A stretch of DNA of 64,000 bases from Gemmatimonadales bacterium (GCA_036265815.1 DATAOI010000064.1:91831-155830); one strand, 5' to 3'; counted from the stretch's first letter, positions 1,694 through 56,703 are shown. Translations and numbers: made by a program. The notes: generated by a model from the letters alone, not told the origin.

Positions 1694-1787
1694 GGGTGGG
1701 GCAAGGACGGCAAGGTGAGGCAGGGTGAGGCAGGGTTCCCCCAGCATCTTTTCCCCTGCCTCACCCTGCCTCACCTTGCCTCACCTT
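1694..1787. repeat. decamer-array palindrome (GGTGRGGCAR units, short loop)
   Basis: G-rich arm 1694-1735 (gggtggggcaaggacggcaaggtgaggcagggtgaggcaggg), loop, then complementary C-rich arm 1753-1787 (cccctgcctcaccctgcctcaccttgcctcacctt). It lies between convergent gene ends. Confidence 0.85.
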
Positions 1788-1849
1788 ACTGGGACCGCCG
1801 TAGCTGCGGTATGACAGCAGCGCGAGACCGGAAAACCGGGAAGGCATCC

Positions 1850-1903
1850 GAGCCTTTCCCTTCCGAACCTTCCCGTCCTTACCGTCTTACCGACCTTCCC
1901 GCC
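1850..1903. repeat. variant array of CCTTCCCGN/CCTTACCGN units (C-rich arm type)
   Basis: The sequence cctttcccttccgaaccttcccgtccttaccgtcttaccgaccttcccgcc shows 9-10 bp periodicity. It is related to the C-rich arm at 39946-39995. Confidence 0.6.
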
Positions 1904-3390
1904 TACTGCCCCACCGCCTGATTCTCGCCCTTCGGCCCCATCCCTCCCACCACCCGCTTCACCGTCGTCCCCGCGGGGATGCTCGACGCCGGCTCCGCGA
2001 TCTCATTGATGATCGCGAGCTGCTCGATGGGGATCGTGGACGGGTACTGCGCATTGAACTGCTCCAGCGTCATCTGCCGCGGCAGCTTGACCAGCTCGAC
2101 CTTGGCGGGCTTCACGTTGAGCGCGGCCGGGTCGCTCAGCTGCGAGAAGCTGCCGATCGACTGGCGGAATGCCTGGTCATAGGTGCCGAGCTTGCCGCCC
2201 GCAGTGTAGCCCATCAGTCCGTAGGTGGTCCCGTTGTAGGAGACGAAGCTCACCACACCCTGGATCGTCCCGCCCTGCTGGTCCTGCGCCTGGAAGTAGC
2301 TGGTAGCAGCGGGCAGGCCGTTGATGCTGGCGGTCGAGCTTTGGCCGGCCTGGATTCCCTGCTGTGAGAGGAACTGCTGGGCCGCCTCCCGCGGCGAGGC
2401 TTTGCCCGCGAGGCCGAGCTGGAACATCGCGTCCTGGGCCGGGCTCTGGGCCACCACCGCGCTGGCGCCGTTCTGGGTCTGCCAGCCCTCCGGGAAGGTG
2501 AGCTGGAACCGCAGGTCAGGATGATAGAAGCGGTTGCCCACGAAATACCCCTGCCTCGGGTCCTCCCCGAACGTCAGGTTCTGCACGTGCTGGAGATACT
2601 GATCTCGGCCCACGATCGCCTTCGACAGGTCCTTGTGCAGGGTGTCGAGCCGCTGTTCGGTCGCCTTGATCCGGTTCTCCGGGTCGGGGTGCGTCTCCAG
2701 CCACTGCGGCAGCTTGCCGCCCCCGCTTGCCTGGCCCACCCGGTCCAGCGTCTCGAACATGTTGCTCATCTGCCGGACGTCGTAGCCCTGGTTGAGCGCG
2801 TAGCGGAAGCCGGCCAGGTCGGCCTGGTTCTCGTAGTCCCGGCTGTACTTGAGGAAGAGGAGCTGGAGCCCCTGGCTGGCCACTCCGGCGAGTTGTGCCA
2901 CCTGGGGCGAGAGGATGCTCCCCAGGCCGAGGCCGAGCTGGGCCACCTGGGCCTTGCTGATCTGCTGCACCGAGTGGCGGTTGGTCACGTGGCCGATCTC
3001 GTGCCCCACCACCGTGGCCAGCTCGGCCTCGTTGGTCACGTAGCCCAGCAGGCCGCGGGTGACGTAGATGAACCCGCCCGGCAGCGCGAAGGCGTTGACC
3101 GAGGCGTCGTTTACCACGTGGAACTCCCACGGCAAGTTGGGCCGCTCGGAGGCGGCCGCGATCCGCTTTCCGATCCCCGAGACATACGCCTCGAGCTGCG
3201 GATTCTGGTAGATCCCGATGGTCTGGGCCACTTCCTGGGAGGCCTGCTTGCCCATCTCGATCTCCTGCGACTCGGAAACCAGCGACAGCTCGTTCTTCCC
3301 GGTCACCGGGTTCCTGGCGCAGTTCGACACCGAGCCGGCGATGAGGAGCGCCGGGAGGAGGAGCCGGGAGAGGGCACGACGTGGCGTCAT
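1903..3390 (-). CDS. M48 family zinc metalloprotease (BepA/Ste24-like), exported/lipoprotein
   Basis: 495-aa ORF with the HExxH motif in VVGHEIGHVTNRH. The N-terminus has a signal/lipobox-like LLIAGSVSNC. Confidence 0.85.
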   Translation of the reverse strand: MTPRRALSRLLLPALLIAGSVSNCARNPVTGKNELSLVSESQEIEMGKQASQEVAQTIGIYQNPQLEAYVSGIGKRIAAASERPNLPWEFHVVNDASVNAFALPGGFIYVTRGLLGYVTNEAELATVVGHEIGHVTNRHSVQQISKAQVAQLGLGLGSILSPQVAQLAGVASQGLQLLFLKYSRDYENQADLAGFRYALNQGYDVRQMSNMFETLDRVGQASGGGKLPQWLETHPDPENRIKATEQRLDTLHKDLSKAIVGRDQYLQHVQNLTFGEDPRQGYFVGNRFYHPDLRFQLTFPEGWQTQNGASAVVAQSPAQDAMFQLGLAGKASPREAAQQFLSQQGIQAGQSSTASINGLPAATSYFQAQDQQGGTIQGVVSFVSYNGTTYGLMGYTAGGKLGTYDQAFRQSIGSFSQLSDPAALNVKPAKVELVKLPRQMTLEQFNAQYPSTIPIEQLAIINEIAEPASSIPAGTTVKRVVGGMGPKGENQAVGQ

Positions 3391-3584
3391 GGGAGATCCT
3401 CGGTTCGCGTTCGGTCGGCCAACCTGCTGCTCCCCAGGAACATAGACGAGGGGCGGCCGCCGGGGCTGTGATCCCCGTCGCCCGCCCCTGCTGTCATCCC
3501 GATCGGCGCCCTGTCACGCCCCCAGCGCAGCAATTGGGGCTCGGGACTCGGGATGGCAGTTCCGCTCCTGTCAGCGGATCCGGT

Positions 3585-4574: not shown

Positions 4575-4585
4575 GGCGGGCGGTC

Positions 4586-5287: not shown

Positions 5288-5291
5288 AGCG

Positions 5292-6638
5292 TCAGTGGTC
5301 CTGCGGGTTGCTGAGGAAGTAGGAGCGGCACGCCATGTCCACCAGATCGCGGGTGAGCCGAGGCGTGGTCTCCCGGTACTTGGCGATGTCGCACACGTGG
5401 GAGAGGATGTCCCGCGGATGGCACGCGCGCGCCGGGATGTTCATCCCCTGGTACCAGTCACGGTCGATCTGGGCCAGCGCGGCCGGGTCGAAATCGATGG
5501 CGTAGCCTTCGCAGCAGCGCCGGAAGATCTCCTCGTAGCCTTCCTTGGAGGGGTCGTTCACCGGGATCTTGTAGTGGATCCGCCGAAGGAACGCCTCCTC
5601 CACCAGGTCGGCCGGGTCGAGGTTGGTGGCGAAGATCAGCAGACAGTCGAACGGAATGGGGAACTTGGCCCCGGTGTGCAGGGTCAGGAAGTCGGTCCGC
5701 TTCTCGAGCGGGACGATCCAGCGGTTGAGCAGGTCGCGCGGGGGCACCCGCTGGCGGCCGAAGTCGTCCACGATGAGCACGCCGCCGTTGGCCTTCACCT
5801 GGAACGGCGCCTGGTAGAGCTTGGTGAACGGATCGTACTGGAGATCGAGCTGCTCCATGGAGAGCTCGCCGCCGGTGACCACCACGGGGCGCTTGATCAA
5901 GGCGTAGCGGCGGTCGAAGCTGGAGCCGGTGCGGAGCCAGATACCCTGGTCGTCGGAGCGGCCGCCCTCCGGTTCGATCTCCTCGTGATGCACGCCGTCG
6001 AAGACGGTCATGATCTGACCGTCGATGTCCACCGCATAAGGAATGTAGAGTGACCCGCCCAGCATCTGGGAGATCGCCTCGGCGATCGCGGTCTTGCCGT
6101 TGCCCGGATGGCCGTACAGGAAGATCGACTTGGACGAGTTGACCGCGGGGCCCAGCATGTCGAACAGCTCCTCGTCCAACACCAGGTGGTCGCAGCCGTC
6201 CCGCATCACCTGCTGGGTCACGTGGGCGTGGCGGATCGATTGGGCCTCGATCCATGCGCGGTACTGGGCGAGCGGCACCGGGATCGGTCCTACGTACTGG
6301 CTCGCTTCCAGGGCGTCCTTGGCGCGGGCCCGTCCGTCGGCGACCAGGTCGAACCGGTAGCTCGCCCGGTTGGGGCCGATGGTGCCGCGTACCTCGACGA
6401 AGCGGCGCTGCTGGAGGGTCAACAGCTCCTCGTCCGCCAGGCCGAACGGAAGGCAGACGTACTCCGCCAGCTCCTGGCCGGTCCGGCTGCCCTGCACATA
6501 GAGCGCCTTGAGCAGGAGGTCGCGCACCGCATCGGGGGCCAGGCCGAGCTCCTCCAGCTTCTCGGGTGTCCTCGGGGCGTCGGGGCGGCCAGGTGCAGGC
6601 TCCTCGTCGAGGTGCGGGATAGCCGGGACGGCGCTCAT
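5292..6638 (-). CDS. AAA+ family ATPase (function unknown), co-oriented with the tad operon
   Basis: It has a Walker A motif (GHPGNGKT), a Walker B-like VLIVDDFG and EEAFLRRIHY. Its start overlaps the DUF192 stop (ATGA at 6635-6638). Confidence 0.75.
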   Translation of the reverse strand: MSAVPAIPHLDEEPAPGRPDAPRTPEKLEELGLAPDAVRDLLLKALYVQGSRTGQELAEYVCLPFGLADEELLTLQQRRFVEVRGTIGPNRASYRFDLVADGRARAKDALEASQYVGPIPVPLAQYRAWIEAQSIRHAHVTQQVMRDGCDHLVLDEELFDMLGPAVNSSKSIFLYGHPGNGKTAIAEAISQMLGGSLYIPYAVDIDGQIMTVFDGVHHEEIEPEGGRSDDQGIWLRTGSSFDRRYALIKRPVVVTGGELSMEQLDLQYDPFTKLYQAPFQVKANGGVLIVDDFGRQRVPPRDLLNRWIVPLEKRTDFLTLHTGAKFPIPFDCLLIFATNLDPADLVEEAFLRRIHYKIPVNDPSKEGYEEIFRRCCEGYAIDFDPAALAQIDRDWYQGMNIPARACHPRDILSHVCDIAKYRETTPRLTRDLVDMACRSYFLSNPQDH

Positions 6639-7920: not shown

Positions 7921-7929
7921 GGGTGCGCC

Positions 7930-12866: not shown

Positions 12867-12926
12867 ACCGCCTCCGAATCGTCGACTACAACATCCCAGT
12901 AGCGTCACTTCGTGATCCCAATAGCG

Positions 12927-14276
12927 TCACTTCGTGGAATTCGTGTCCACCGATGCCCGCATCTTCATAGACCCGCTCCAGCGCCAGGTCTGGGGCTCGC
13001 CGGTCGGCAGCGGCGCCGGAGTGTCGCTCGGCAATACCAGCTTGGGCGAGACCAGCACCAGGAGCTCGGTGCGGTTCTGCCGAGCGTCCTTGGAACGGAA
13101 GAATTGTCCCAGGATCGGGAGATCCCCCAGGATCGGAATCTTAGTAGCGTTATCAGTTAGTGTGTTGTCCATCAGCCCGGCAATGGCCAGATACTGCCCA
13201 TTCTTCATCTCGACCTCGGTCTCGGCCCGGCGAGACAGAATGCTCGGGATGGTGAAGCCCCCGAAGACCAGCGGGTTCGAGAAGTCGAGCGAGGAGACTT
13301 CCGGCATGACCTTGAGCCGGATGCTTCCGTTCCGGGTGATGGTCGGGAGGAACTTGAGCCGGATGCCGAACTCCTTGAAGACGATCGACACCGAGCCGGA
13401 GCCGCCGCCGCCCTGCACGGCTGGATAGGGGAACTCGCCGCCGGCCAGGAAGCTCGCCTCCTTGCCAGGCAAGGTGATGAGGTTCGGCTCGGCGAGGCTC
13501 CGGAAGTCGCCCTTCGACTGTAGCGCCCGAATCAGGAGCTCGATGCTGGCATTGGCATTGAACAGGCCGACATCGACGATGCCATCGGAGAATCCGCCCG
13601 CACCGGTATTACCGGGGGGGACAGTGTTGCTGGCACCCTGCCAGTTACCGTTGTCGTCCAGTTTGTGAGGGTTGAGCGTCGCGATCTGGGAGCGGAACTG
13701 CTTGAGTACGCTCTTGTTCACTTCCGCGAACCGCACGTTCAGCATCACCTGGACGGCTTCGGGAGTGGTCAGGTTGTCCACGATGGTGGCACCCGAGCCC
13801 TTGGCGATCTCCACCGCGCGGTTGGCCACGCTGGCGTCCCGGACCGTGCCGGAGAGGGTCACGACGTTTCCGCTCGCCACAACGTCCACGTGCTCGCCCT
13901 CGAGCACGGAGGCCAGGTAGCGCTCCATACCTGCCGCGTCCGCGGTGACCTCGATGGAGTAGAGCTTGATGGCGCCCGCGTTGTCCCACAGGAAGAGACT
14001 GGTGGTACCCAGCGCCTTCCCGTTGATCAGGACCTCGGTGGGCGAGACGACGACGGCCTCGGCGACCGTTGGATCGCCGATGGAGAACCGCTGGATCGCC
14101 GTGGTGTTGACCAGCAGGGCCGAGGCCCCCTTCGACACCGAGACGACCTGTTCCGGGGCGCGCACCACGCGCTGCGCCGCGGCGGTCTGGACGCTCAGAA
14201 CCCCGAGCAGGGCGGCGCATCCCACGAGGCGCCGGAGAGACAGGACAGGGATCAGGCCGCGCCGATGGGTGCTCAC
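12927..14276 (-). CDS. cpaC: CpaC/RcpA outer-membrane secretin
   Basis: It has a signal peptide, BON-like N-terminal domain pattern and a C-terminal secretin signature (IPILGDLPILGQFFRS). Confidence 0.9.
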   Translation of the reverse strand: MSTHRRGLIPVLSLRRLVGCAALLGVLSVQTAAAQRVVRAPEQVVSVSKGASALLVNTTAIQRFSIGDPTVAEAVVVSPTEVLINGKALGTTSLFLWDNAGAIKLYSIEVTADAAGMERYLASVLEGEHVDVVASGNVVTLSGTVRDASVANRAVEIAKGSGATIVDNLTTPEAVQVMLNVRFAEVNKSVLKQFRSQIATLNPHKLDDNGNWQGASNTVPPGNTGAGGFSDGIVDVGLFNANASIELLIRALQSKGDFRSLAEPNLITLPGKEASFLAGGEFPYPAVQGGGGSGSVSIVFKEFGIRLKFLPTITRNGSIRLKVMPEVSSLDFSNPLVFGGFTIPSILSRRAETEVEMKNGQYLAIAGLMDNTLTDNATKIPILGDLPILGQFFRSKDARQNRTELLVLVSPKLVLPSDTPAPLPTGEPQTWRWSGSMKMRASVDTNSTK

Positions 14277-15149: not shown

Positions 15150-15269
15150 TCAACACTCGTTCCGCATAGTTGACGTGGAGGAGATGGTGATCGTGCTGCT
15201 CCCACCGGTCCATCCCAGCATGGCGCCCACAAAGCCCATGCCGTGCGTGGTGGAGACCAGCACGGTCAT
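15150..15269 (-). other. 39-codon ORF duplicating the TadE C-terminus (product of the tandem duplication)
   Basis: It encodes MTVLVSTTHGMGFVGAMLGWTGGSSTITISSTSTMRNEC, against the TadE tail MTVLVSTTHRMGFVGALLGWAGGSSTITISSTSTMRNECT. Its ATG overlaps the tadE stop (ATGA at 15266-15269). Expression is unknown. Confidence 0.3.
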
Positions 15270-15388
15270 GTACACTCGTTCCGCATAGTTGACGTGGAGG
15301 AGATGGTGATTGTGCTGCTCCCACCGGCCCATCCCAGCAGCGCGCCCACAAAGCCCATTCGGTGCGTGGTCGAGACCAGCACGGTCAT
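15153..15388. repeat. tandem duplication, two 117-bp copies with a 119-bp period, of the tadE 3' end
   Basis: Copy 15153-15269 and copy 15272-15388 differ at 7 positions by my manual alignment. Confidence 0.9.
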
Positions 15389-39269: not shown

Positions 39270-39869
39270 ATGGCCGCCAGACAGCTTGCCCCGTTGGTAC
39301 TCCTTCTCGCCGGCTGCCACAGCGGACAGATCACGCCCGCGGGTGGACCCGCCCCCGATGCGCCGGCCGGCGGCAACGGCCCGGTCACCACGTCGCCTGG
39401 CCCCACCTCGGCCCCCGCTCCGACACCGCCGGTCGCTCCGGGCAGCCCCTCACCCGCCTCTGCCGGAATCCCTCCGGGCGACAGCCTCCCCATCCGGGAG
39501 ATCGGCCACTGGCAATACGCCCAGGTGGACGACCAGCCCCGGCGGCTGGTCATCCAGGATCCGGTCACCTGGACCCGTTTCTGGAACCAGCTCGGCGCCG
39601 ACGGCGCCCAGCCGGTGATCGACTTCAAACGCGAGCTGCTGGTGGCCGTGACCCAGGGCCGGCAGCCTCACGGGGGCGTCGAGGTGCAGGTCGAGCGGGC
39701 GGTCCGGTCGGGCGACGCGCTGACGATCGGAGTGCTCGAGCGGTCACCCGGGCCCGACTGCATGACCACCGAAGTGATCACTCACCCCACCCAGGTGGTG
39801 GCACTGCCCGCCGCCGGAGTGAAACGCTGGACCTTCGTGGAGCGCAAGGAGATCCGGAGCTGCGGGTGA
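39270..39869 (+). CDS. lipoprotein with PrcB_C-like C-terminal domain
   Basis: It has a lipobox (LLLAGCHS), a Pro/Ala-rich linker, and a C-terminal pattern (WTRFWNQL...VIDFKRELLVAVTQGRQPHGGVEVQV...) resembling the protease-complex subunit PrcB C-domain. Confidence 0.5.
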   Translation: MAARQLAPLVLLLAGCHSGQITPAGGPAPDAPAGGNGPVTTSPGPTSAPAPTPPVAPGSPSPASAGIPPGDSLPIREIGHWQYAQVDDQPRRLVIQDPVTWTRFWNQLGADGAQPVIDFKRELLVAVTQGRQPHGGVEVQVERAVRSGDALTIGVLERSPGPDCMTTEVITHPTQVVALPAAGVKRWTFVERKEIRSCG

Positions 39870-39995
39870 GGCAAGGGCGGTAAAGACGGTGAGGTCGGTA
39901 AGGGCAGTACGGGCGGCAAGGGAATCCCATGCCTGCACTTACGAACCTTACCGCCCTTCCCGTCCTTACCGCCCTTGCCGTCCGCCCTTCCGTCC
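39865..39995. repeat. palindrome built from variant GGTAAGG/GGCAAGG/GGGAAGG units
   Basis: The G-rich arm is 39865-39922 and the C-rich arm is 39946-39995 (ccttaccgcccttcccgtccttaccgcccttgccgtccgcccttccgtcc). Confidence 0.75.
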
Positions 39996-40115: not shown

Positions 40116-42287
40116 ATGTCGTCCCAGCCAACCCGCAGCAATCCCAGCCGCGCTCTGCCCGCGCTCGCCCATGCGCCCGGCGGACCACTGGAGCTCGAAC
40201 GGCCGAAACCCACACTGGTCCCGTCCGAGCCGGCGCTGCCGCCGGTGGCGCGCGCCGCGGCGCGGGTCGACACGGTGCACGGCGAGGTGCGGATCGACGA
40301 GTACTTCTGGCTCCGCAATCGCGAGGATCCCGAGGTCCTCGCCTACCTCGAGGCGGAGAACCGCTACACCGAAGCGATGATGCGGCACACCGAGCCGCTG
40401 CAGGAACGGCTCTTCCGGGAAATGCGTGGGCGGATCAAGGAGACCGACCTCTCGGTGCCGGAACGGCTCGACGGCTGGCTCTACTACTCTCGCACCATGG
40501 AAGGGGCGCAGTATCCCATGCTATGCCGCCGCCCGGCCGCGGAGGGGGACGCCACGGACGACGGCGCCGAAGAGGTGCTGCTGGACCAGAATCCGTTGGC
40601 GGAGGGGCACGCCTACTTCCGGTTGGGCACTCATGAGGTGAGTCCGGATCACACGCTGCTGGCCTATGCCGTCGACACCAGCGGCGCGGAGGCGTTCACC
40701 CTTTACGTCAAAGACCTGGCGACCGGCGAACTGCTGGCAGAGACCATCGGCAACGTGTCGCCCAGCGTCGCCTGGGCCAACGACAGCCGGACTCTGTTCT
40801 ACGTGGTGCTGGACGAGGCGCGCCGGCCCTGCCGACTCTACCGCCATCGACTGGGGGAGAACCCGGTCGAGGACGTGCTGGTCCACTTCGAGCCGGACGA
40901 GGCCTTCTTTCTCGACATCAGCCGGAGCGGCAGCCGGGAGTACCTGCTGCTCGACCTGGGCAGCCACTCTACCTCCGAGGTCCGCTATGCCAGCGCCGAC
41001 CGTCCGGAGGAGTCGTTCCGGGTGGTCGAGCCGCGCCGCGCCGGCATCGAGTACACCGTGACCCACCACGGCTCCCGCTTCCTGATCACCACGAACGACG
41101 ACGCTCCCAACTTCCGCCTCGTCTCCGCCCCGGTGGAGAACCCCGGCAAGGCGGCGTGGACCGAAGTCCTGCCACACCGGCCGGCGGTCAAGCTGGACTC
41201 GACCGATGCGTTCCGCGATCACTTGGTGGTGTACGAGCGGGAGGCGGGACTGCGCCAGATCCGCGTGCTGCCGCTCGCGGGCGGCGCGTATCTCATCCCC
41301 TTCCCCGAGCCGGTGTACACCATCCGGCAGCACGAGAACCCCGAGTTCGACACCAGTCTGCTCCGCTTCTCCTACACCTCGATGGTCACGCCCAACGCTG
41401 TGGTCGACTGGGACATGGCGGCGCGCACCTGGACCGTCCGGAAGCAGACCGAGGTGTTGGGGGGCTACGACCCGAGCCAGTACCGGACCGAGCGGCTCTT
41501 CGCCACGGCGCCGGACGGCGAGCGAGTGCCGGTGTCCCTGGTCTACCGGCTGCCGCTGGCGCCGGGCGAGCGGCGGCCGCTCCTGCTCAACGGCTACGGC
41601 GCCTACGGGGTGAGTTTCGACCCGGCGTTCTCCTCGAGCAGCCTGTCGCTGCTCGACCGGGGGTTCATCGTGGCAATCGCCCACGTGCGCGGGGGCGAGG
41701 AGATGGGGCGGGCCTGGTACGAGGGGGGGAAGCTGCTCAAGAAGCCCAACAGCTTCACCGACTTCATCGCCGCCGCCGAGCACCTGATTGCCGCCGGCTT
41801 CACTTCGGCCGACCGGCTGGTGGTCACCGGCGGGAGCGCGGGCGGTCTCCTGATGGGTGCCGTGGCCAACCTCCGGCCCGACCTGTTCCGCGCGGTGCTG
41901 GCCGAGGTGCCGTTCGTGGACGTGGTGAACACCATGCTGGACGCCACGCTGCCGCTCACGGTGATCGAGTACGACGAGTGGGGCAATCCCAACCACCCCG
42001 CGGCGTACGCCTGCATCCGCTCCTACTCGCCGTACGACAACGTGGAGTCCAAGGACTATCCCCACATGCTGGTGACGGCGGGCCTCAACGACCCGCGGGT
42101 GGCCTACTGGGAGCCCGCCAAATGGACGGCCCGCCTCCGGGCCCGCAAGACCGACGGCAACCGACTGCTGCTCAAGACCAACATGGGCGCGGGGCACGGC
42201 GGCGCGTCGGGACGGTGGGATTATTTGCGGGAGGTGGCGTTCAAGTACGCGTTTGTGCTGGATGTGGTGGGGATGGGGGCAGGGTGA
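40116..42287 (+). CDS. ptrB: oligopeptidase B / S9A prolyl oligopeptidase family serine protease
   Basis: It has an N-terminal beta-propeller pattern (DEYFWLRNREDPEVLAYLEAEN) and the catalytic Ser context GGSAGGLLMG. The C-terminal GAGHGG carries the His. The exact start is uncertain. Confidence 0.9.
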   Translation: MSSQPTRSNPSRALPALAHAPGGPLELERPKPTLVPSEPALPPVARAAARVDTVHGEVRIDEYFWLRNREDPEVLAYLEAENRYTEAMMRHTEPLQERLFREMRGRIKETDLSVPERLDGWLYYSRTMEGAQYPMLCRRPAAEGDATDDGAEEVLLDQNPLAEGHAYFRLGTHEVSPDHTLLAYAVDTSGAEAFTLYVKDLATGELLAETIGNVSPSVAWANDSRTLFYVVLDEARRPCRLYRHRLGENPVEDVLVHFEPDEAFFLDISRSGSREYLLLDLGSHSTSEVRYASADRPEESFRVVEPRRAGIEYTVTHHGSRFLITTNDDAPNFRLVSAPVENPGKAAWTEVLPHRPAVKLDSTDAFRDHLVVYEREAGLRQIRVLPLAGGAYLIPFPEPVYTIRQHENPEFDTSLLRFSYTSMVTPNAVVDWDMAARTWTVRKQTEVLGGYDPSQYRTERLFATAPDGERVPVSLVYRLPLAPGERRPLLLNGYGAYGVSFDPAFSSSSLSLLDRGFIVAIAHVRGGEEMGRAWYEGGKLLKKPNSFTDFIAAAEHLIAAGFTSADRLVVTGGSAGGLLMGAVANLRPDLFRAVLAEVPFVDVVNTMLDATLPLTVIEYDEWGNPNHPAAYACIRSYSPYDNVESKDYPHMLVTAGLNDPRVAYWEPAKWTARLRARKTDGNRLLLKTNMGAGHGGASGRWDYLREVAFKYAFVLDVVGMGAG

Positions 42288-42321
42288 GGCAAGGTGGGGC
42301 AAGGTGGGGCAGGGTGAAGGG
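42280..42321. repeat. solo G-rich decamer array
   Basis: The sequence is cagggtgaggcaaggtggggcaaggtggggcagggtgaaggg. The ptrB stop (TGA 42285-42287) lies in its first unit. I found no complementary arm downstream. Confidence 0.75.
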
Positions 42322-42403
42322 AACGCCGCTGTTCCGAGCACCGGGTGTCATTCCGAGGCCGTTTTGATGCGCTCAGGGTAGATGCCGCGAAGGAGGCGCG
42401 GCG

Positions 42404-44486: not shown

Positions 44487-44570
44487 AGGGTGAGGCAAGG
44501 TGAGGCAGGGTGAGGCAAGGGCTCCCTGCCCCACCCTGCCTCACCCTGCCCCACCTTGCCACCTTCACCT
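44487..44570. repeat. decamer-array palindrome (short loop)
   Basis: The G-arm is 44487-44521 and the C-arm is 44524-44570, giving an almost loop-less hairpin. Confidence 0.85.
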
Positions 44571-44581
44571 GAGCATGCCCC

Positions 44582-45091
44582 ATGATGACCCTTTCCCCGG
44601 GCACCCGCTTCCCCGAGCTCCAGGCACGGGCGGTCGACGGCAGCACGCTTCGGATTCCCGAGGAGCTGCAGGGGATCACCGCCGTGCTGCTCTTTTACCG
44701 CGGCCACTGGTGAAGCCACTGCCGTCAGCAGTTGGCTGACTTTCAGCAGCACTTTGCCGAGTTCAACGCGCTGGACGTTCAGATCGTGGCGCTCTCGGCG
44801 GACAGCGAGCAGGACGCCTGGGAGATGACCCAGCGGCTGGGGCTCTCGTTCACCGTGCTCCACAGCCTCGATCCAGAGGCGACCTCCCGCGCGATCGGCT
44901 GTTACGCCGGCACTCACGACGGCCGCCCACACATTCAACCCGCCGACTTCATCCTCGCGCCCGACGGGACCATCGTGCACGCGGTCTATTCGAGCGGCAA
45001 GGTGGGCAGGCTGACGGCGAATGACGCGCTCACGGTGGTGGGGGAGGGTGGGGCAAGGTGGGGCAAGGTGAGGCAGGGTGAGGCAGGGTGA
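44582..45091 (+). CDS. peroxiredoxin-like (AhpC/TSA, PRX_like2-type) protein with in-frame TGA at the active-site Cys position; candidate selenoprotein, or else a nonsense pseudogene
   Basis: The frame runs from ATG 44582 (MMTLSPGTRFPELQARAVDGSTLRIPEELQGITAVLLFYRGHW) through TGA 44711-44713. It continues in the same frame as SHCRQQLADFQQHFAEFNALDVQIVALSADSEQDAW...FILAPDGTIVHAVYS. The combined 169-aa length and the motif order match Prx-like W-C-P-x-C proteins. Confidence 0.55.
44719..44746 (+). promoter_or_regulatory. candidate bacterial SECIS-like hairpin
   Basis: The fold is CUG-cc-GUCAGC-AGUUG-GCUGAC-uuu-CAG. The 6-bp stem is 44724-44729/44735-44740, with a 3-bp extension. The apical loop contains GU and starts 19 nt after the U of the UGA. 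Confidence 0.4.
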
Positions 45092-45147
45092 AGGAACGCG
45101 CTCCTCGTCTCACCCTGCCGCACCTTGCCCCACCTTGCCCCACCTTC
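45044..45147. repeat. decamer-array palindrome (short loop)
   Basis: The G-arm is 45044-45094 and the C-arm is 45108-45147. It lies between convergent gene ends and contains both stop codons. Confidence 0.85.
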
Positions 45148-45874
45148 AGTACCCCAATTGCTCATCCCATTCCCCTGGCCGCCCTTCCCGGGTGAAATCG
45201 AACAGGTTCCAGAGCGGTTCCAGCGTGCCGACGTGGCGTGGGTCCTGGCCGGGATCAGTCGGGGCGTAGAAGAGCTCTGAGCTCCAGAAGTGGCGGATCT
45301 CCGCGCCCTGGCGGTGGAACACGGTGAGCATCGGCCGCTGCGATCCCCCCGCGGTCTCGGCGAGGTAGTCGCGGTTGTAGGAGTTGGCGGCCGAGCTCAG
45401 GAGCCGGAGGCGGCGCCAGTCGCGCTCCTGGGCGAAGGTCAGCAGGCGTGTCAGCGGCGCCTTGGCGACGACGGCGAAGTTGAGGTGCTGACTGGCGTGC
45501 TCGACCGCGCCATCCAGCTGGTCGAGCAGCGCCACGCACGAGGGGCACGGGGCCTCCGCCAATGGCAGCCGCGCCGTCCGGCCGGCCGGTGCTCCCGGCC
45601 GCGCATCGCCGGGGTCGCGGGGGAACATGAAGCTGTAGATCACCAGCGAATCCTTGCCCGGCGCAAATAGCTGGGACATCCGCACCGCGACCGGAGCACC
45701 ATCGGCACCCGCGCCCGCAAAGACGTAGTCCTCCGGAACGACCCCGCCGGGCGGCAGCTCGCGCCTTGCGGCCGCCACCGCCTCCATCGCGTGGCGGAGC
45801 TCGATCTCCATCCGCAACAGCCGGTCGCGCGCGGTGCGGTATTGCGGGGACTCGTTGGGGAAGGTGACGGGCAT
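45146..45874 (-). CDS. DUF899 thioredoxin-fold protein
   Basis: I chose the ATG at 45874 (MPVTFPNESPQYRTARDRLLRMEIELR...). The CPSC motif and the ...FWSSELFYAP...PLWNLFDFT pattern are typical of DUF899. Confidence 0.75.
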   Translation of the reverse strand: MPVTFPNESPQYRTARDRLLRMEIELRHAMEAVAAARRELPPGGVVPEDYVFAGAGADGAPVAVRMSQLFAPGKDSLVIYSFMFPRDPGDARPGAPAGRTARLPLAEAPCPSCVALLDQLDGAVEHASQHLNFAVVAKAPLTRLLTFAQERDWRRLRLLSSAANSYNRDYLAETAGGSQRPMLTVFHRQGAEIRHFWSSELFYAPTDPGQDPRHVGTLEPLWNLFDFTREGRPGEWDEQLGY

Positions 45875-45892: not shown

Positions 45893-46010
45893 AAGGTGAG
45901 GCAGGGTGGGGCAGGTGGGGCAGGGTGGGGCAAGGTGGGCACGGCGCTCAACGACTGGGTATGTTGCCTTCACCCTGCCCCACCCTGCCCCATCCTGCCT
46001 CACCTTACCC
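45893..46010. repeat. decamer-array palindrome with conserved long loop
   Basis: The G-arm is 45893-45940, the loop is 45941-45966 (acggcgctcaacgactgggtatgttg) and the C-arm is 45967-46010. Confidence 0.85.
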
Positions 46011-46864: not shown

Positions 46865-46940
46865 GAGGGTGGGGCAAGGTGGGGCAGGGTGAGGCAGGGT
46901 GAGGCAGGGTGGGGCAGGGTGAGGCAAGGTGAGGCAGGGT
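46865..46940. repeat. long solo G-rich decamer array (about 7.5 units) upstream of the four-helix-bundle gene
   Basis: The sequence is gagggtggggcaaggtggggcagggtgaggcagggtgaggcagggtggggcagggtgaggcaaggtgaggcagggt. Confidence 0.85.
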
Positions 46941-46994: not shown

Positions 46995-47372
46995 ATGTCT
47001 CCGCCCTATGAGAGGCTCGCAGCGTGGCGGTTCTGTCATGAGCTTGCGCTCAGGTCGCGGGAGTTCACCAAAGGATGGAGCAAAGAAGACAGCTGGTTGG
47101 GGAGCCAGATACGCCGGGCTGCCTTCTCCGCCGCGGCGAACATGGTCGAGGGATCCACTAAGCGAGGTCCTCGCGAGTTCCGGCGTTATCTCGACATCTC
47201 CCTCGGCTCGCTTGCGGAGCTCGAATACGCCTTCCGATTTGCCTGCGACGCAAAGATCGAGTCGGACCTACCCTGGGATGACATCAGGACTCTGCGGAAC
47301 CGAGCCCACGGAACCACGCGGCTGCTCTACAACACGATAAGTGACAAGGTGAGGCAGGGTGAGGCAAAGTGA
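46995..47372 (+). CDS. four-helix-bundle protein (23S rRNA intervening-sequence protein family, Avd-like fold)
   Basis: 125 aa. The pattern WRFCHELAL...LGSQIRRAAFSAAANMVEGSTKRGPREFRRYLDISLGSLAELEYAFRFA matches the conserved core of TIGR02436-type proteins. The stop codon lies inside a repeat unit. Confidence 0.85.
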   Translation: MSPPYERLAAWRFCHELALRSREFTKGWSKEDSWLGSQIRRAAFSAAANMVEGSTKRGPREFRRYLDISLGSLAELEYAFRFACDAKIESDLPWDDIRTLRNRAHGTTRLLYNTISDKVRQGEAK

Positions 47373-47449
47373 GGCAAGGGGCTGTGAGCGAGTGGGTGTG
47401 TTGCCGTTACCCTGCCTCACCTTGCCCCACCCTGCCCCACCTTGCCTCC
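47346..47449. repeat. decamer-array palindrome with conserved long loop
   Basis: The G-arm is 47346-47380, the loop is 47381-47409 (gctgtgagcgagtgggtgtgttgccgtta) and the C-arm is 47410-47449. Confidence 0.85.
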
Positions 47450-47452
47450 CTT

Positions 47453-47995
47453 TCACGACGCCAACGCCACGTAGCTCGGAAGCGCCCGGAGGCGCCGTAC
47501 CCGGTTCAGATGGTGCGCGTCGCGCCGCTCGAGGAAGCCGAGTCCTTCGAGTGTGGTGAGCCAGCCGACGACCGGGTGGCGGAAGAAGGGACGGGAGAGG
47601 TCCTCCGGTCCCATGAGCCCGAGCACGGCGCGGAGATTGGCGCGGGCGCGGCTCCAGCGGACCTCGAGCTGCCCCAGGCTGCTGCCGCCCGACGGCAGAG
47701 TGCCCGGCGCCGCGGCGCGGAGGCGGCTGCCCCGCGCGAAGCTCAACGAAAGCAGCGGCAGCACCACGGCGGCGCGGGCGCTGTCGGCCAGGCTGCGGGT
47801 CGGAGGACGGTCAGGAATGCCGCGCAGCACCTCCTCCTCGGCCAGGACGAGATGCTCCACCAGGTCGAGCGCCGACCAGCTCCCGGGCGCCGGATGGAAG
47901 ACCAGGCGTCCCGGCGTCATGGCGTTGAGCTCGCGCAGCATGGCGGCGCGCTGCCGCTCCAGGCGGTTGAACCGGCGCTCGAGTTGGCGAAGCAT
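47453..47995 (-). CDS. DinB-family (DinB_2) four-helix metal-binding protein
   Basis: 180 aa. It has WSALDLVEHLVLAEE and a C-terminal HHLNRV, typical of the DinB superfamily His triad. Confidence 0.65.
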   Translation of the reverse strand: MLRQLERRFNRLERQRAAMLRELNAMTPGRLVFHPAPGSWSALDLVEHLVLAEEEVLRGIPDRPPTRSLADSARAAVVLPLLSLSFARGSRLRAAAPGTLPSGGSSLGQLEVRWSRARANLRAVLGLMGPEDLSRPFFRHPVVGWLTTLEGLGFLERRDAHHLNRVRRLRALPSYVALAS

Positions 47996-48798: not shown

Positions 48799-49806
<1,008 letters not shown>

Positions 49807-49912: not shown

Positions 49913-50512
49913 ATGGCCAATCAGGGATCCATCAAGCGGCTCTGTGTCTTCTGCGGGACCAACACCGGCGCCCGCCCGGAATACGCGGCGGCCGCCCGAC
50001 AGCTCGGCGCGCTGCTGGCGGAGGAGGAGATCGAGCTGGTCTACGGCGGCGCCAGCGTCGGCATCATGGGCGACCTGGCCGATGCGGTACAGGAGGGCGG
50101 CGGACACGTGACGGGCATCATCCCCCAGCAGCTCATCCAGAAGGAGGAGGCCCACCGCGGCATCCCCGATCTCATCGTGGTGGCATCGATGCACCAGCGG
50201 AAGTCGCAGATGGCCGACCTCTCCGACGGTTTCGTGGCACTGCCGGGGGGGATCGGCACGCTGGAAGGGTTCTTCGAGATGCTCACCTGGGGACAGCTCG
50301 GCATCCACGCCAAACCGTGCGCGATTCTCAATGTGGCGGGCTACTTCGAGCTGCTGTCGCGGTTCCTGGACCACGCCGTGAAGGAAGGATTCCTGACCGA
50401 GACCCACCGGGCCACCATCATCGTGGAATCCGATCCACGCCGACTGCTGGAGCGGCTTCGGGCCTACACCGCGCCGACGGGGGCGCCGCTTATGGGACGG
50501 TCGAATAGGTGA
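49913..50512 (+). CDS. LOG family protein (TIGR00730; cytokinin riboside 5'-monophosphate phosphoribohydrolase-like)
   Basis: It has CVFCGTN, YGGASVGIMG and the PGGIGTLEG motif. I chose the ATG at 49913; the track ORF starts at GTG 49880. Confidence 0.85.
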   Translation: MANQGSIKRLCVFCGTNTGARPEYAAAARQLGALLAEEEIELVYGGASVGIMGDLADAVQEGGGHVTGIIPQQLIQKEEAHRGIPDLIVVASMHQRKSQMADLSDGFVALPGGIGTLEGFFEMLTWGQLGIHAKPCAILNVAGYFELLSRFLDHAVKEGFLTETHRATIIVESDPRRLLERLRAYTAPTGAPLMGRSNR

Positions 50513-50621
50513 GGGAGGGTGGGGCAAGCTGGGGCAAGGTGGGGCAGAGTGAGGCAGGGGTGGTGAGCGACAGGGGGTGTTGCCTCACCTTGCCTCACTC
50601 TGCCCCACCCTGCCTCACCTT
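50508..50621. repeat. decamer-array palindrome with conserved long loop
   Basis: The G-arm is 50508-50559, the loop is 50560-50581 (gtggtgagcgacagggggtgtt) and the C-arm is 50582-50621. It contains the stop codons of both convergent genes. Confidence 0.85.
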
Positions 50622-51860: not shown

Positions 51861-51884
51861 AATATGCGCCCCGCGGAACTTGCC

Positions 51885-52811
51885 TCACCTTCCCTTCTCC
51901 GGCTTCACCGCAAGCTTGGGCGCCGGATCCTTGGTCGCATGCTCCGCGGGCGGCCTGCCCCCGAATCGTTCCACGTAAAAACGAGTGAACTCCGCCCCAA
52001 GCAGCACGATCTGCGCGGAGTAATAGACCCACAGCAACAGCACGATGACCGATCCCGCCGCGCCGTAGCTCGAGGCCGTGGTGCTCTGTCCCAGATACAG
52101 CCCGATCACCTGCTTGCCGATGCTGAAGAGTCCCGCCGTCACCAGGCCGCCTATCCATACGTCGCGCCAGCGCAGGTCCACATCGGGCAGCACCTTGTAC
52201 ACCATGGCGAAGAGCAGCGTCACAACGCCCAACGACACCAGGACGTTGGCGGCCTGCCAAACGACCGCGAGTGCGGGGAATGCGTGTCCCATGTACTGGT
52301 CGAGTGCGGCGAGCGCGGCGCTCACCAGGAGCGAGACCAGCAACAGGAATCCCACCCCGACCACCAGCGCGAACGAGATCACCCGCGGTAGCAGCAACTG
52401 CCGGATGCCCGCGCTCGGCTTGGGCTTCACCCGCCAGATGGCGTCCAGCGCAGTCTGCAGCTCGAGGAACACGCCGGTCGATCCCAGAAAGAGCGTCACC
52501 ATCCCTATCACCGTCGCCAGCGTGCTGGAGGACCGCTTGGCGGCGCCCTCGAGCATCGCCTGTATGGCCTCCGCGCCGCTCCTCCCCACCAGGCCCTGGA
52601 TCTGTCCTACGATCTCACCCCGCACCGCCTCGGGGCCGAACACCAGTCCGGCCATGGCGATTGCCACCAGCAGGATGGGCGCGAGGGCGAAGAGGGTGTA
52701 GTAGGCGAGTGAGGCGCCCAGCCGGGGGACGTTGTCGTCCCACCAGCCAGCCAGCGCGTGCCTCATCACCCACCAGAGCGCGGCGGGAGTGATGATGACC
52801 CGCCGCTTCAC
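51885..52811 (-). CDS. YihY/BrkB (virulence factor BrkB / former RNase BN) family membrane protein
   Basis: It has WWDDNVPRLGASLAYYTLFALAPILLV and a C-terminal YYSAQIVLLGAEFT. The GTG start overlaps the upstream stop (GTGA). Confidence 0.85.
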   Translation of the reverse strand: MKRRVIITPAALWWVMRHALAGWWDDNVPRLGASLAYYTLFALAPILLVAIAMAGLVFGPEAVRGEIVGQIQGLVGRSGAEAIQAMLEGAAKRSSSTLATVIGMVTLFLGSTGVFLELQTALDAIWRVKPKPSAGIRQLLLPRVISFALVVGVGFLLLVSLLVSAALAALDQYMGHAFPALAVVWQAANVLVSLGVVTLLFAMVYKVLPDVDLRWRDVWIGGLVTAGLFSIGKQVIGLYLGQSTTASSYGAAGSVIVLLLWVYYSAQIVLLGAEFTRFYVERFGGRPPAEHATKDPAPKLAVKPEKGR

Positions 52812-54229: not shown

Positions 54230-55629
54230 TCCGACTCGGAGAGCTTGTGGGTGGCGGTGGGGCTCTCCTGGATCCACACGGTCTTGGTGTTGACGAACTC
54301 CCGCATGCCCTGGCTGGAGAGCTCCCGCCCATAGCCCGACTGCTTCACTCCACCGAACGGCACCCGCGGATCCGATGCGACCATGGCGTTGATGAACACC
54401 ATGCCCGCCTCCAGGTCGGCGATGAAGCGGCCGCGCTCCCCCGCATCGTTGGTCCAGGCGCTGGCGCCGAGTCCGAACGGGGTATCGTTGGCCAGCCGGA
54501 TGGCATCGTCGAGATCGCGGGCGCGAAACAGGATCGCGACCGGGCCGAAGACCTCGTCGTGGTACGCCGGCGAGTCGGGTGTCACGCCGGTGAGCACGGT
54601 CGGCGCGTAGTAGAAGCCTGGCCGGTCGAGCCGGCGCCCGCCGGTCAAGAGCCGGGCCCCCGCGGCCACCGAGCGCTGCACCTGCTGGCCGATGGTGCTC
54701 ACCTGGCTCTCGTTGGCGAGCGGACCGACCTCGGTGGACGGATCCATCGGATCGCCCACCTTGAGCGCCTCGAATTCCGCCACGAAGCGCCGCTCGAACT
54801 CCTCCGCGATCGACTCCTGCACGATGAAGCGCTTGGCCGCGATGCACGACTGGCCGTTGTTGATGACCCGCGCCTTGACCGCGGTCCGCACCGCGGTGTC
54901 GAAGTCGGCGCTTGGCATCACGATGAACGGGTCGCTCCCGCCGAGCTCGAGCACCGACTTCTTGACCACCTTGCCGGCGGCCGCGGCCACGTGCCCACCG
55001 GCCCCCGTGCTGCCGGTCAGCGTGACCGCAGCCACCCGGGGGTCCTCGATGACCTGGCGGACGTGATCGGTGTCGATCAGCAGCGTCTGGAAACAGCCCT
55101 CGGGAAATCCCGCCCGGCGGAAGACATCCTCGATGGCCAGGGCGCACTGGGGCACGTTGGAGGCGTGCTTGAGCAGGCCAACATTACCGGCCATCAGCGC
55201 CGGCGCCGCGAAGCGGAAGACCTGCCAGAAGGGAAAGTTCCACGGCATCACGGCGAGCACCGGCCCGATCGGCTGATAACTCACATAGCTCCGCGAGGCG
55301 CTGGTCTCGACGTACTCGTCCGCCAGAAACCGCTCGGCGTACTCGGCGTAGTAGCGGCAGCCGAGGGCGCACTTGGCCGCCTCTTCGACAGCGGCCTTGA
55401 TCGGCTTGCCCATCTCCAGCACCATGAGCTTACCGAGCGCCTCCTTCTCTGTCTCCAGGATCTCGGCGGCGCGGAGCAGCATGCGCTTTCGGTCGGCCAG
55501 CGGGCTCTTGCGGTAGCGCCGATAGGTATCGGCGGCGCATTGCAGGCGCGCGTCCAGCTCGGCGTCCGACAGCGGCTGGAAGGTACGAACGGTCTCGCCG
55601 GTGGCGGGGTTGATCGTGGCGATGGTCAT
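54226..55629 (-). CDS. NAD(P)-dependent aldehyde dehydrogenase (succinate-semialdehyde dehydrogenase-like)
   Basis: 467 aa. It has the catalytic Glu context LELGGSDP and the Cys context NNGQSCIAAKR. The FPFWQ and GLLKHASNVP patterns are also present. Confidence 0.9.
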   Translation of the reverse strand: MTIATINPATGETVRTFQPLSDAELDARLQCAADTYRRYRKSPLADRKRMLLRAAEILETEKEALGKLMVLEMGKPIKAAVEEAAKCALGCRYYAEYAERFLADEYVETSASRSYVSYQPIGPVLAVMPWNFPFWQVFRFAAPALMAGNVGLLKHASNVPQCALAIEDVFRRAGFPEGCFQTLLIDTDHVRQVIEDPRVAAVTLTGSTGAGGHVAAAAGKVVKKSVLELGGSDPFIVMPSADFDTAVRTAVKARVINNGQSCIAAKRFIVQESIAEEFERRFVAEFEALKVGDPMDPSTEVGPLANESQVSTIGQQVQRSVAAGARLLTGGRRLDRPGFYYAPTVLTGVTPDSPAYHDEVFGPVAILFRARDLDDAIRLANDTPFGLGASAWTNDAGERGRFIADLEAGMVFINAMVASDPRVPFGGVKQSGYGRELSSQGMREFVNTKTVWIQESPTATHKLSESE

Positions 55630-55692
55630 GCCCGTATCTTACTGTCGGAATGGGCCAGCGGAAATAGGGCCGGGATCATAGATTGGGCTATC

Positions 55693-56640
55693 ATGACAGC
55701 ACTCAGCCGCCTGCTCGAAGGCAGCATCGACTACGCGGGGCTGTTTCCCCCCGCCGCGCTGGAGCTCGGGGCCGCCGTCCGGCAGTACGCCTCGTACCGG
55801 GACGGCGAGCAATCGTGGGCGCTGGGGCGGTTCGTCATTCCGGTGTCGCGGCTGTCCGAGCTGGAGGCGAGCGCGGCCGGGCTGATGCCACCGCAGCCCT
55901 CGGAGCGGCCGTGGCGGCTCACGGCACTCGTCGGACTGGACACCGCCGCCGACGCGCGTGTCGTAGGTGAGTTCAACTGTCGCCATGCCGCGCACGGCGC
56001 GCCCGGCGCCGTCACCGACGCCATCGAGGCGAAGGCGGACACGGTGGCGGCAGTCGATCGCCTGCTCGGCTCGGTCCCGGACTATCTCCAGACCTACGTC
56101 GAGATCCCCATCACCCAGGATCCGACGCCGCTGGTGGAGGAGATCGCCCGCCACGGTGAGCGGGCCAAGGTCCGGACCGGCGGGATCACGGCCGCTGCCT
56201 TTCCGACCACCGCGGACCTCGCCCGCTTCATCCGGGTCTGCGCCGAGGCGAACGTGCCGTTCAAGGCGACGGCCGGGCTGCACCACGCGCTTCGCGGCGA
56301 CTACCCGCTGACCTACGCGCCGGACAGCTCACGGGGCCGCATGTTCGGCTTCCTCAACGTCTTTCTGGCCGGCGCCTACGCGCTGGTCGGCATGGACGCC
56401 GCCACCCTGAAGCACCTGCTGGAAGAGACCTCCCCTGCCGCCTTCGACGTGACGGACGACGCCATTACCTGGCGGGGACACCGGCTCGACCTCGGGGCGA
56501 TCCGGCGCGCGCGCGAGCTAGTGGTGGCGTTCGGGTCGTGCTCGTTCACCGAACCAACGGAGGAAACGGCAAGGTGGGGCACGGTGGGGCAGAGTGAGGC
56601 AAGGTGGGGCGCGGGGAAGCATGGTGAGGCATCGCTATGA
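55693..56640 (+). CDS. hypothetical protein
   Basis: The ATG at 55693 begins the plausible part (MTALSRLLEGSIDYAGLFPPAAL...AKVRTGGITAAAFPT...FKATAGLHHALRG). I recognised no domain. The last 20 or so codons run into the repeat. The upstream part of track ORF 54247..56640 is antisense to the ALDH gene. Confidence 0.55.
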   Translation: MTALSRLLEGSIDYAGLFPPAALELGAAVRQYASYRDGEQSWALGRFVIPVSRLSELEASAAGLMPPQPSERPWRLTALVGLDTAADARVVGEFNCRHAAHGAPGAVTDAIEAKADTVAAVDRLLGSVPDYLQTYVEIPITQDPTPLVEEIARHGERAKVRTGGITAAAFPTTADLARFIRVCAEANVPFKATAGLHHALRGDYPLTYAPDSSRGRMFGFLNVFLAGAYALVGMDAATLKHLLEETSPAAFDVTDDAITWRGHRLDLGAIRRARELVVAFGSCSFTEPTEETARWGTVGQSEARWGAGKHGEASL

Positions 56641-56703
56641 GCGGTCGGTTGTGTGTCCCTGAGACCCTCACCCCTGCCCCACCCTGCCTCACCCTGTCAC
56701 CTT
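56568..56703. repeat. decamer-array palindrome (degenerate, long loop)
   Basis: The G-arm is 56568-56630, the loop is roughly 56631-56664 (contains atgagcggtcggttgtgtgt) and the C-arm is 56665-56703. Confidence 0.75.

Follow-up and report, generated by a model that had tools for sequence, protein, structure and literature searches.

Decamer-array palindromes at gene ends in a Gemmatimonadales genome

Genes and repeat elements of the window

The object of the analysis was a 64,000-nucleotide stretch of the genome of an uncultured soil bacterium of the Gemmatimonadales (GCA_036265815.1 DATAOI010000064.1:91831-155830), hereafter referred to as the window. A reading of the DNA alone, without database searches (the sequence-only reading), had noted in it nine loci of hairpin-forming palindromes built from tandem 10-bp GGTGRGGCAR units. 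These decamer palindromes constitute a real and apparently undescribed repeat family, and none was described for Gemmatimonadota in the literature searched. The elements are 85-137 bp in size, with arms of 3-7 tandem decamers. A sister family with a 9-bp unit occurs in the same genome. The elements of both families (E1 to E9 for the decamer loci), with their predicted folding energies and their position relative to open reading frames (ORFs), are as follows.

1695-1785: E1, full hairpin (G arm 1695-1734, loop 1736-1753, C arm 1756-1785; -69.7 kcal/mol, z -6.95), between the stop codon of a 134-aa gene (1688-1690, + strand) and the gene of an M48 peptidase (- strand)
1868-1901: one-armed 9-bp sister array, CCTTACCGY on the + strand and G-rich on the M48 sense strand, ending 1 nt from the M48 stop codon (1903-1905)
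39865-39995: 9-bp sister hairpin with units GGTAAGGRC / GGGAAGGAC (-83.8 kcal/mol, z -7.64)
42273-42322, + strand: E2, one-armed G array of about 4-5 units, no fold; the prolyl oligopeptidase stop codon (42285-42287) is the TGA of a unit
44489-44555: E3, full hairpin with a 4-nt loop (-60.7 kcal/mol, z -7.0), lying upstream of the Prx-like gene (start 44582), in the spacer of a divergent gene pair
45037-45144: E4, full hairpin of 46 bp (-99.4 kcal/mol, z -12.7); the Prx-like ORF terminates within the G arm (45089-45091), and the DUF899 stop codon (45146-45148) lies 1 nt past the C arm
45895-46004: E5, full hairpin with the long-loop core (-101.8 kcal/mol, z -8.4), filling the - strand tandem spacer from SBP_bac_3 (stop 46005-46007) to DUF899 (start 45874)
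46868-46937, + strand: E6, one-armed G array of 7 units, no fold, in the spacer that separates the divergent genes for SBP_bac_3 and the four-helix-bundle protein (4HB; 23S_rRNA_IVP)
47348-47451: E7, full hairpin with a long loop, TGAGCGA..GGGTGTGTTGCC (-65.3 kcal/mol, z -6.0); the 4HB gene stop codon (47370-47372) lies within the G arm and the DinB_2 stop codon (47453-47455) 1 nt past the C arm
50508-50619: E8, full hairpin with a long loop (-79.3 kcal/mol, z -6.4); the stop codon of the LOG-family gene (50510-50512) is the TGA of the first unit, and the acyltransferase stop codon (50595-50597) lies within the C arm
51880-51889, - strand: isolated single unit AAGGTGAGGCAAG, supplying the BrkB stop codon
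56573-56693: E9, full but more degenerate hairpin (-78.9 kcal/mol, z -4.0); the G arm is read through by a 315-aa ORF whose stop codon (56638-56640) is in the loop, and the fumarylacetoacetase gene starts at 56710

The gene order was derived from Pfam matches and precomputed gene calls. At the left end of the window, the 134-aa gene (+) is followed by E1 and the M48 peptidase gene (-). The most repeat-rich part reads PrcB_C (+), the 9-mer hairpin, prolyl oligopeptidase (+), E2, NDH-2-like (-), E3, Prx-like (+), E4, DUF899 (-), E5, SBP_bac_3 (-), E6, four-helix-bundle/23S_rRNA_IVP (+), E7, and DinB_2 (-). Further on, LOG (+) is followed by E8, acyltransferase (-), the single unit, and BrkB (-), and E9 lies between the 315-aa gene (+) and fumarylacetoacetase (+). 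The window contains no tRNA genes; its G+C content is 62%-71%, and proteins encoded in it also occur on JGI metagenome contigs, of which the longest has 162 kb. For two window proteins, the nearest homologues with a taxon name belong to Gemmatimonadales.

The decamer unit and the folding of the elements

The GGTGRGGCAR motif had 51 exact matches in the window, compared to 1.11 expected from dinucleotide-preserving shuffles (maximum of 100 shuffles, 4). A two-unit pattern with up to 3 mismatches was found 49 times against an expectation of 0.15, and all these matches fell inside the nine named loci, with none elsewhere in the window. Tandem Repeats Finder (TRF) also reported period-10 arrays at every one of these loci. 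Both the nine loci of the sequence-only reading and the variation in unit copy number from locus to locus were thereby confirmed. Among 69 in-phase units, eight of the ten positions were 86%-96% conserved, and positions 5 and 10 were about half A and half G. The G arms are composed of units of the GGTGGGGCAG and GGTGAGGCAA types; half of the units read GGTGAGG and contain G2 runs only. A G arm of A-type units carries TGA in all three frames, and reading frames entering an element therefore end quickly.

An assembly artifact was considered as the source of the repeats and rejected, since the same elements recur in independent metagenome assemblies of the same population obtained from other samples (L039-L041, L051, and L052). 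The Rfam search returned no match to the window elements at gathering thresholds; at E<=5, it yielded only generic long-hairpin models, such as miRNA precursors, with scores of 27-58 bits against thresholds of 58-150. Literature searches by exact sequence and by keyword found no description of the decamer family. The sequence-only reading had not recognized the decamer-array architecture as a described family. This holds inasmuch as no named family was found; the architecture itself has precedents in the Xanthomonas GGGAATC arrays and the cyanobacterial STRR.

Folded as single strands, the seven full elements had energies of -60.7 to -101.8 kcal/mol (z -4.0 to -12.7), and none of 200 shuffles folded as well. 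Alignment of the two arms matched at 233 of 267 positions, in agreement with the imperfect hairpins predicted from the sequence. The two loci near 42280 and 46865 (E2 and E6), described in the same reading as having a G arm only, indeed have no partner arm and no fold (z +1.1 and +0.5). In E4, the two arms mirror each other in their A/G pattern across 4 units, and the arms of E1 are mirrored as well; arms with unequal unit numbers and unmirrored A/G patterns also occur.

A loop core of about 24 nt is common to E7 and E8. The proposed class of long loops was clearly recognizable at 47381-47409 and 50560-50581, in part at 45941-45966, and only weakly at 56631-56664. Loop sequence common to several copies indicates that whole elements were copied between loci.

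The order of the arms appeared to be invariable. In all 15 distinct paired arrays examined, comprising five unit sequences, the purine-rich array was located 5' and its complement 3', and the reverse order was never seen. Since this order is identical on both strands, it is a genuine structural constant. The presence of TGA in three frames was considered as its general cause and rejected, because the units GGGAAGGAC and AGAGGACGG of relatives contain no T.

Distribution and unit dynamics

The genome scan, performed with three exact units against one genome per species (185,579 species), revealed a sole true hairpin relative, in one metagenome-assembled genome of Gemmatimonadota (L001). Five matches in genomes outside Gemmatimonadota and most metagenome matches were plain one-strand tandem arrays and were judged unrelated. 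In the metagenome scan, five distinct soil hairpin loci were found on seven contigs with 63%-66% G+C: one locus common to L008, L023, and L025, one in L010, one in L020, and two in L027. A scan of viral contigs gave one chance single-arm match only. These counts are lower bounds because assemblies break at the repeats, as in L039, which ends inside E6. For one window protein, the closest relatives (about 90% identical) are encoded on contigs that measure only 2-5 kb. Gemmatimonadota are abundant in soil and poorly studied, and knowledge of repeats at which short-read assemblies break should aid their assembly and binning.

Comparison with related genomes showed that the family is missing from the syntenic relatives L044, L047, and L048, which share 75%-92% nucleotide identity with the window (82%-85% for L044 and L047). 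Within the family, L001 and L010 carry elements in orthologous coxII/DinB spacers with 83.7% nucleotide identity, between divergently transcribed genes. The two copies have the same outer boundaries and a common loop core, GCTAAGGCAA; they differ in the number of units, 4 versus 6.5 in one arm and 2.7 versus 4.5 in the other. The neighboring spacer sequence is heavily diverged, and the units are still at consensus. Copies thus persist at orthologous sites over about 16% nucleotide divergence with their units at consensus, and arm length changes through gain and loss of units. E6 likewise has 7 units in the window and 6 in a second assembly, which breaks there. Differences in unit counts between orthologous copies and between near-identical assemblies indicate that unit number is labile, while unit sequence is held constant.

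Position at gene ends and stop codons

For 13 of the 14 gene 3' ends that flank the elements, the stop codon is within an element or no more than 4 nt away from it, unlike gene starts, which are 16-57 nt from the elements. The midpoints of seven of the nine elements are non-coding in a window that is 88% coding. Five elements overlap called ORFs by 5-68 nt, and several stop codons lie inside units. The elements are therefore not strictly intergenic, contrary to what had been stated from the sequence alone. The accompanying statement that all copies occupy convergent gene ends or tandem-gene spacers was wrong for E3 (44489-44555) and E6 (46868-46937), which are located between divergent genes.

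Comparison with the relatives showed that units take over the stop codons of ordinary genes. The LOG protein ends in ...GRSNR-TGA in the window versus ...GRTNR-TAG in L048, at the same codon, the TGA being supplied by the unit. The PrcB_C gene terminates with GGG TGA, with the unit TGA at 39867-39869, versus CAG TAG in L047, and the oligopeptidase C-terminus is ...GMGAG* versus ...GMDA* in L047. Lone units are situated on stop codons at 39865 and 51880. At the latter site, BrkB has gained two codons and a single unit compared to the 85%-identical relative L044, which has CGG TAG without a unit. Some protein tails are encoded by the repeats, for example, KVRQGEA(K) and ARWG. Since the elements rewrite the last codons and stops of ordinary genes, they affect gene calling.

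Six of the nine elements are clustered in the 5.2-kb oligopeptidase-DinB interval (P about 2e-5 for a pre-specified interval). The gene content of this interval (42.3-47.5 kb) varies: in the window, it comprises genes for NDH-2, the Prx-like protein, DUF899, SBP, and 4HB; in L047, DoxX and YCII; and in L048, a GT4 glycosyltransferase. The DUF899 protein shares about 80% identity with homologues named from Gaiellaceae and Gemmataceae, suggesting that it was acquired horizontally. The neighbors of DUF899 genes were tried as a way to empty sites and showed no synteny; the gene looks horizontally spread.

The 4HB gene (46995-47372, +), annotated as a "23S rRNA-intervening sequence protein," has the one-armed E6 on one side and the full hairpin E7 on the other and is absent at the corresponding position in L047. 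The layout of a one-armed G array, a gene, and a full hairpin is also found at E2, NDH-2, and E3. Insertion of the 4HB gene into the loop of an older hairpin, with E6 pairing with the C arm of E7, was considered and rejected: the A/G patterns agreed a little better with it (5/6 versus 3/6), which is far too weak.

The 9-bp sister family and the units of relatives

The sister family is represented in the window by the 130-nt hairpin at 39865-39995 (units GGTAAGGRC / GGGAAGGAC) and the one-armed array at 1868-1901. Two more elements were found just outside the window (L051 13465-13761 and 14411-14517). Both unit types are mixed in single arrays: the G arm of E1 includes one 9-mer-type unit, AAGGACGGC, and the first unit of the 39865 hairpin is a 10-mer. 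This mixing indicates that the two families are related. In one copy, the arms are separated by a nested palindrome of 225 nt, and the whole structure folds at -239 kcal/mol. A 32-nt indel in the G arm of this copy distinguishes the otherwise identical assemblies L051 and L052.

At the 3' end of the DinB gene, the window carries the 10-mer hairpin E7, L047 a hairpin of GGGAAGGAC units, and L048 a hairpin of CACAGAGGG units. The 3' end of PrcB_C has the 130-nt 9-mer hairpin in the window versus a small ordinary hairpin in L047. In the more distant Gemmatimonadales contig L045, a hairpin of AGAGGACGG units (19825-19942) fills the spacer from tRNA-Val to tRNA-Met in a cluster of five tRNAs. It must belong to the tRNA precursor transcript, and such elements are thus tolerated within a transcription unit. 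These data point to a wider class of elements in Gemmatimonadales, in which the 9-10 nt unit differs by genome, while the architecture, purine-rich-first order, and gene-end position are constant.

Other G-rich repeats were seen in L047: a 22-mer in 2.1 copies (5466-5511) directly past the oligopeptidase stop codon, where the window has E2, and an 18-mer in 2.7 copies (670-717) in the LOG/AKR divergent spacer.

Comparison with known systems

REP and BIME elements of enterobacteria and pseudomonads are high-copy, species-specific extragenic imperfect palindromes, often near stop codons, with roles in mRNA 3' stabilization and transcription attenuation. A REP consists of one palindrome, about 20-40 nt long, whose GTAG-type head is conserved, and it is associated with a RAYT gene, which is usually REP-flanked. 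The resemblance to REP/BIME proposed earlier is retained for location and likely consequences: nine loci per 64 kb lie at gene boundaries, and L044 and L047 are without the family. It does not extend to structure, since the window elements are 85-137 nt long, consist of tandem decamers without BIME-style alternation, and have GTGR in every unit instead of a single GTAG/GTGG head. No RAYT (Y1 transposase) gene was revealed by Pfam scans, which covered most of the longer window ORFs (parts of the window, e.g., 3.6-6.7 kb and 59-64 kb, partly via precomputed lists only), or by the precomputed lists for about 10 kb of flanks. In the same ORFs and flanks, no transposase of a related autonomous insertion sequence was seen.

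Assignment to other known classes was rejected. MITEs are marked by target-site duplications, and none was found at eight elements. For integron attC sites and CALIN arrays, the polarity is opposite: the outer ends are AAGGTG...CACCTT and the units GTGAGGC...GCCTCAC, one mismatch off. The genes between the elements are of mixed orientation and encode 125-723 aa, and the Pfam scans found no integrase of a cassette array. CRISPR arrays differ in having spacers; here, the units are contiguous, head to tail. Intrinsic terminators are alike in being G+C-rich stem-loops directly past a gene, usable from both strands at convergent pairs. They differ in that the elements have no U tract, their stems are 3-5 times longer, and some copies lie in promoter regions.

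The closest precedent is the GGGAATC repeat of Xanthomonas, by likeness of architecture and not by homology. These heptamers form variable tandem arrays, about 90% intergenic, at a mean of 28 nt from the upstream ORF on the sense strand, and each genome has 70-75 convergent array pairs with stem-loop potential (Rehm et al. 2015, PMC4692102). The G-rich heptamer simple-sequence repeat (SSR) of Nostoc is GGGGAYT (PMC4692102). Shared features are short G-rich tandem units, variable copy number, location on the sense strand close to the stop codon, and, in Xanthomonas, convergent pairing with the same arm order. On the other hand, the window unit is 10 (or 9) nt long instead of 7, has no sequence similarity to the SSRs, and belongs to another phylum. 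The window loci are mostly paired hairpins with the stop codon often in the first unit, and their G-quadruplex (G4) potential is only moderate; the SSRs are heptameric GGGNATC or GGGGAYT with four G3 tracts preferred, and G3+ tracts occur here in G-type units only. Moreover, the unit sequence is swapped at an orthologous site in the relatives of the window.

Cyanobacterial STRR are tandem heptamers forming intergenic hairpins, e.g., between hupS and hupL and upstream of hoxW, for which effects on transcript stability, translational coupling, or termination were proposed (PMC2670836). Their pairing as inverted arrays is exceptional (PMC4692102), and their heptamers, found in filamentous cyanobacteria, are of unrelated sequence. 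The decamer family adds one more case to a type of repeat known from Xanthomonas and cyanobacteria and is not a new type; it is best filed under G-rich simple-repeat palindromes or REP-like extragenic repeats.

Possible origin and role of the elements

The explanation we favor, with about as much doubt as confidence, is a composite one. The elements would be a lineage-specific, non-coding, non-autonomous dispersed palindromic repeat, shaped by slippage and exchange between copies, with a putative role as stem-loops at transcript ends. Slipped-strand mispairing could alter arm length. The uniformity of the unit and the seeding of new loci may be due to recombination or gene conversion among copies or to an enzyme acting in trans. 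Seeding would be favored at stop codons in the context GG-TGA or GG-TAG, which resembles the unit core GGTRAGG. Transcription from either strand would then produce RNA with a 35-50 bp stem-loop, which would start at the stop codon or a few nucleotides from it. This stem-loop could serve as a bidirectional transcript end without a U tract, at which transcription pauses or terminates, 3' exonucleases are blocked, or RNase III processes the transcript.

The role at transcript ends fits several observations. Canonical stem-plus-U-tract terminators in the 39-58 kb region occur at chance level (6 found versus 5.8 expected, with no element among them), and at PrcB_C a small hairpin was swapped for a large one. 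It also fits the persistence of hairpins with three different unit sequences at the DinB gene end.

A number of points weigh against this explanation. A terminator makes no sense at the divergent loci E3, E6, L001/L010, and L051 13465-13761. Mismatches between the arms showed no bias toward G.U on either strand (11 G.T versus 14 A.C), and no compensatory changes between arms were found; these results thus do not demonstrate that pairing in RNA is under selection. The strong conservation of the unit sequence fits protein recognition or recent spread equally well, and the hairpins at the DinB site could be repeated insertions at a permissive hot spot instead of a conserved function. No mobilizing gene was found in the scanned ORFs of the window or in the fetched flanks. 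Every functional step is our inference.

The main rival, which we consider rather unlikely, is a purely selfish REP/RAYT- or MITE-type element that depends for its copying on an enzyme gene elsewhere in the genome; gene ends would be merely tolerated sites, and the hairpin would be the recognition structure of the enzyme. The dispersal of the copies, the loop shared by E7 and E8, and the occurrence in all three kinds of intergenic region, including divergent promoters, agree with it. So do the accumulation of six copies in the interval of variable gene content, the conservation of the unit beyond the needs of pairing, the absence of the family from the 82%-85% identical relatives L047 and L044, and the 225-nt palindrome nested within the loop of one 9-mer element, as is typical of small mobile repeats. 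However, eight elements had no target-site duplications, only 3-5 nt chance flanking matches, and the Pfam scans and the precomputed flank lists revealed no transposase, Y1 transposase, or integrase. The construction of 85-137 nt palindromes from tandem units is unlike REPs, and the copies of L001 and L010 testify to vertical inheritance at one site. The variable interval also brings to mind attC-like recombination sites of a cassette gene-capture system, with hairpins bracketing the genes acquired between the oligopeptidase and DinB. An element is present at every gene junction at 42.3-47.5 kb, the interval holds other genes in L047 (DoxX, YCII) and L048 (GT4), DUF899 looks horizontally acquired, and the elements, like attC sites, begin at stop codons and occupy almost the entire spacer. 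Such a system is nevertheless very improbable. The elements lack RYYYAAC/GTTRRRY core sites, their arm polarity is opposite to that of attC, and no integrase was found nearby in the Pfam scans. In addition, the genes are of mixed orientation and include ones of 545 and 723 aa, elements are also located beside ordinary conserved genes (LOG, ALDH operon, FAA hydrolase), and Rfam yields generic hairpin matches only.

Two other explanations were considered. According to one of them, the elements are G4-forming simple-sequence repeats, and palindromes arise since each of two convergent genes has its own G array. The arms have G4Hunter scores of 1.2-1.8, and 10 of the 21 canonical G4 motifs of the window lie in the elements. 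One-armed arrays do exist (E2, E6, and 1868-1901), those of E2 and 1868-1901 being G-rich on the sense strand directly past the stop codon; the G-arm-first order and the independent unit numbers and A/G patterns of the arms would be explained, and Xanthomonas shows the same placement and convergent pairing (PMC4692102). We consider this model quite improbable, because half of the units are GGTGAGG with G2 runs only, the units AGAGGACGG and CACAGAGGG of relatives are poor G4 formers with the architecture unchanged, and full hairpins are also found in tandem and divergent spacers without a second stop codon. Moreover, a duplex or hairpin competes with G4 in paired elements, and the mirrored A/G pattern in E4 and E1 indicates that the arms of these two elements are not independent. 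The other explanation interprets the elements as scars of break repair, in which G-rich units were added to the two 3' ends of a double-strand break in a telomere-like, templated manner before the ends were joined. It would account for the G-rich arm coming first in 15 of 15 loci, the unequal unit numbers and unmirrored A/G patterns, and the one-armed arrays. It is scarcely credible in view of the loop sequence common to different loci, the mirrored arms of E1 and E4, the precise placement at stop codons, and the stable inheritance at orthologous sites in L001 and L010; to our knowledge, there is also no candidate enzyme.

An extension of the favored composite explanation, which we regard as unlikely, is that Gemmatimonadales hold a general system of self-renewing tandem-unit palindromes. 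These would be seeded at stop codons by microhomology of GG-TGA/GG-TAG with GGTRAGG, would have the purine-rich arm first, and would be homogenized genome-wide to a lineage-specific 9-10 nt unit. The hairpin would persist at the gene end in a covariation of the whole element. If so, this lineage builds hairpins for transcript ends or RNA processing from repeats evolving in concert, not from individually evolved terminators, and the constant arm order, also reported in Xanthomonas, would reflect a mechanism not yet understood.

Three features merit further attention: the invariable order of the arms, the substitution of stop codons, and the switch to another unit at an orthologous site. The purine-rich-first order, constant here and in Xanthomonas, is a testable puzzle concerning the origin of simple-repeat palindromes. 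Three unit sequences at one orthologous site offer a natural system for distinguishing hairpins kept for their function from re-insertion.

Other features of the window

The AhpC/TSA-Redoxin ORF at 44582-45091 (+), the Prx-like gene between E3 and E4, reads through an in-frame TGA at 44711-44713. A W-x-S-H-C motif has this TGA as its first position, so that UxxC takes the place of CxxC. With the TGA read as Cys, the Pfam E value was 5e-19 over residues 7-133; the C-terminal half by itself gave 2e-7. Beginning 14 nt downstream of the TGA is a small hairpin, GUCAGC-AGUUG-GCUGAC; its z score was only -1.6, and Rfam gave no SECIS match. The ORF is either a candidate selenoprotein gene or a pseudogene. 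Its last 16-18 residues or so are encoded by E4.

A Tad/Flp pilus operon with an RcpC/CpaB-like gene occupies roughly 3.5-16 kb on the - strand. A 119-bp tandem duplication (15153-15388; 2 copies, 94% identical) overlaps the start of the RcpC/CpaB-like gene, and two copies of a 22-bp unit (12893-12936) lie between two genes of the Tad locus. The region of 17-35 kb has a lower G+C content (61%-66%) than the rest and contains no repeat elements. It encodes many large ORFs without a Pfam match, as well as two GT2 glycosyltransferases and a sulfatase-like protein. Close to the right end of the window, a 20-bp unit is present in 2.4 copies (60486-60535), and a 14-bp unit, CCGGCGCCCCGATC, in 4.2 copies (60735-60793), with two canonical G4 motifs on the - strand.

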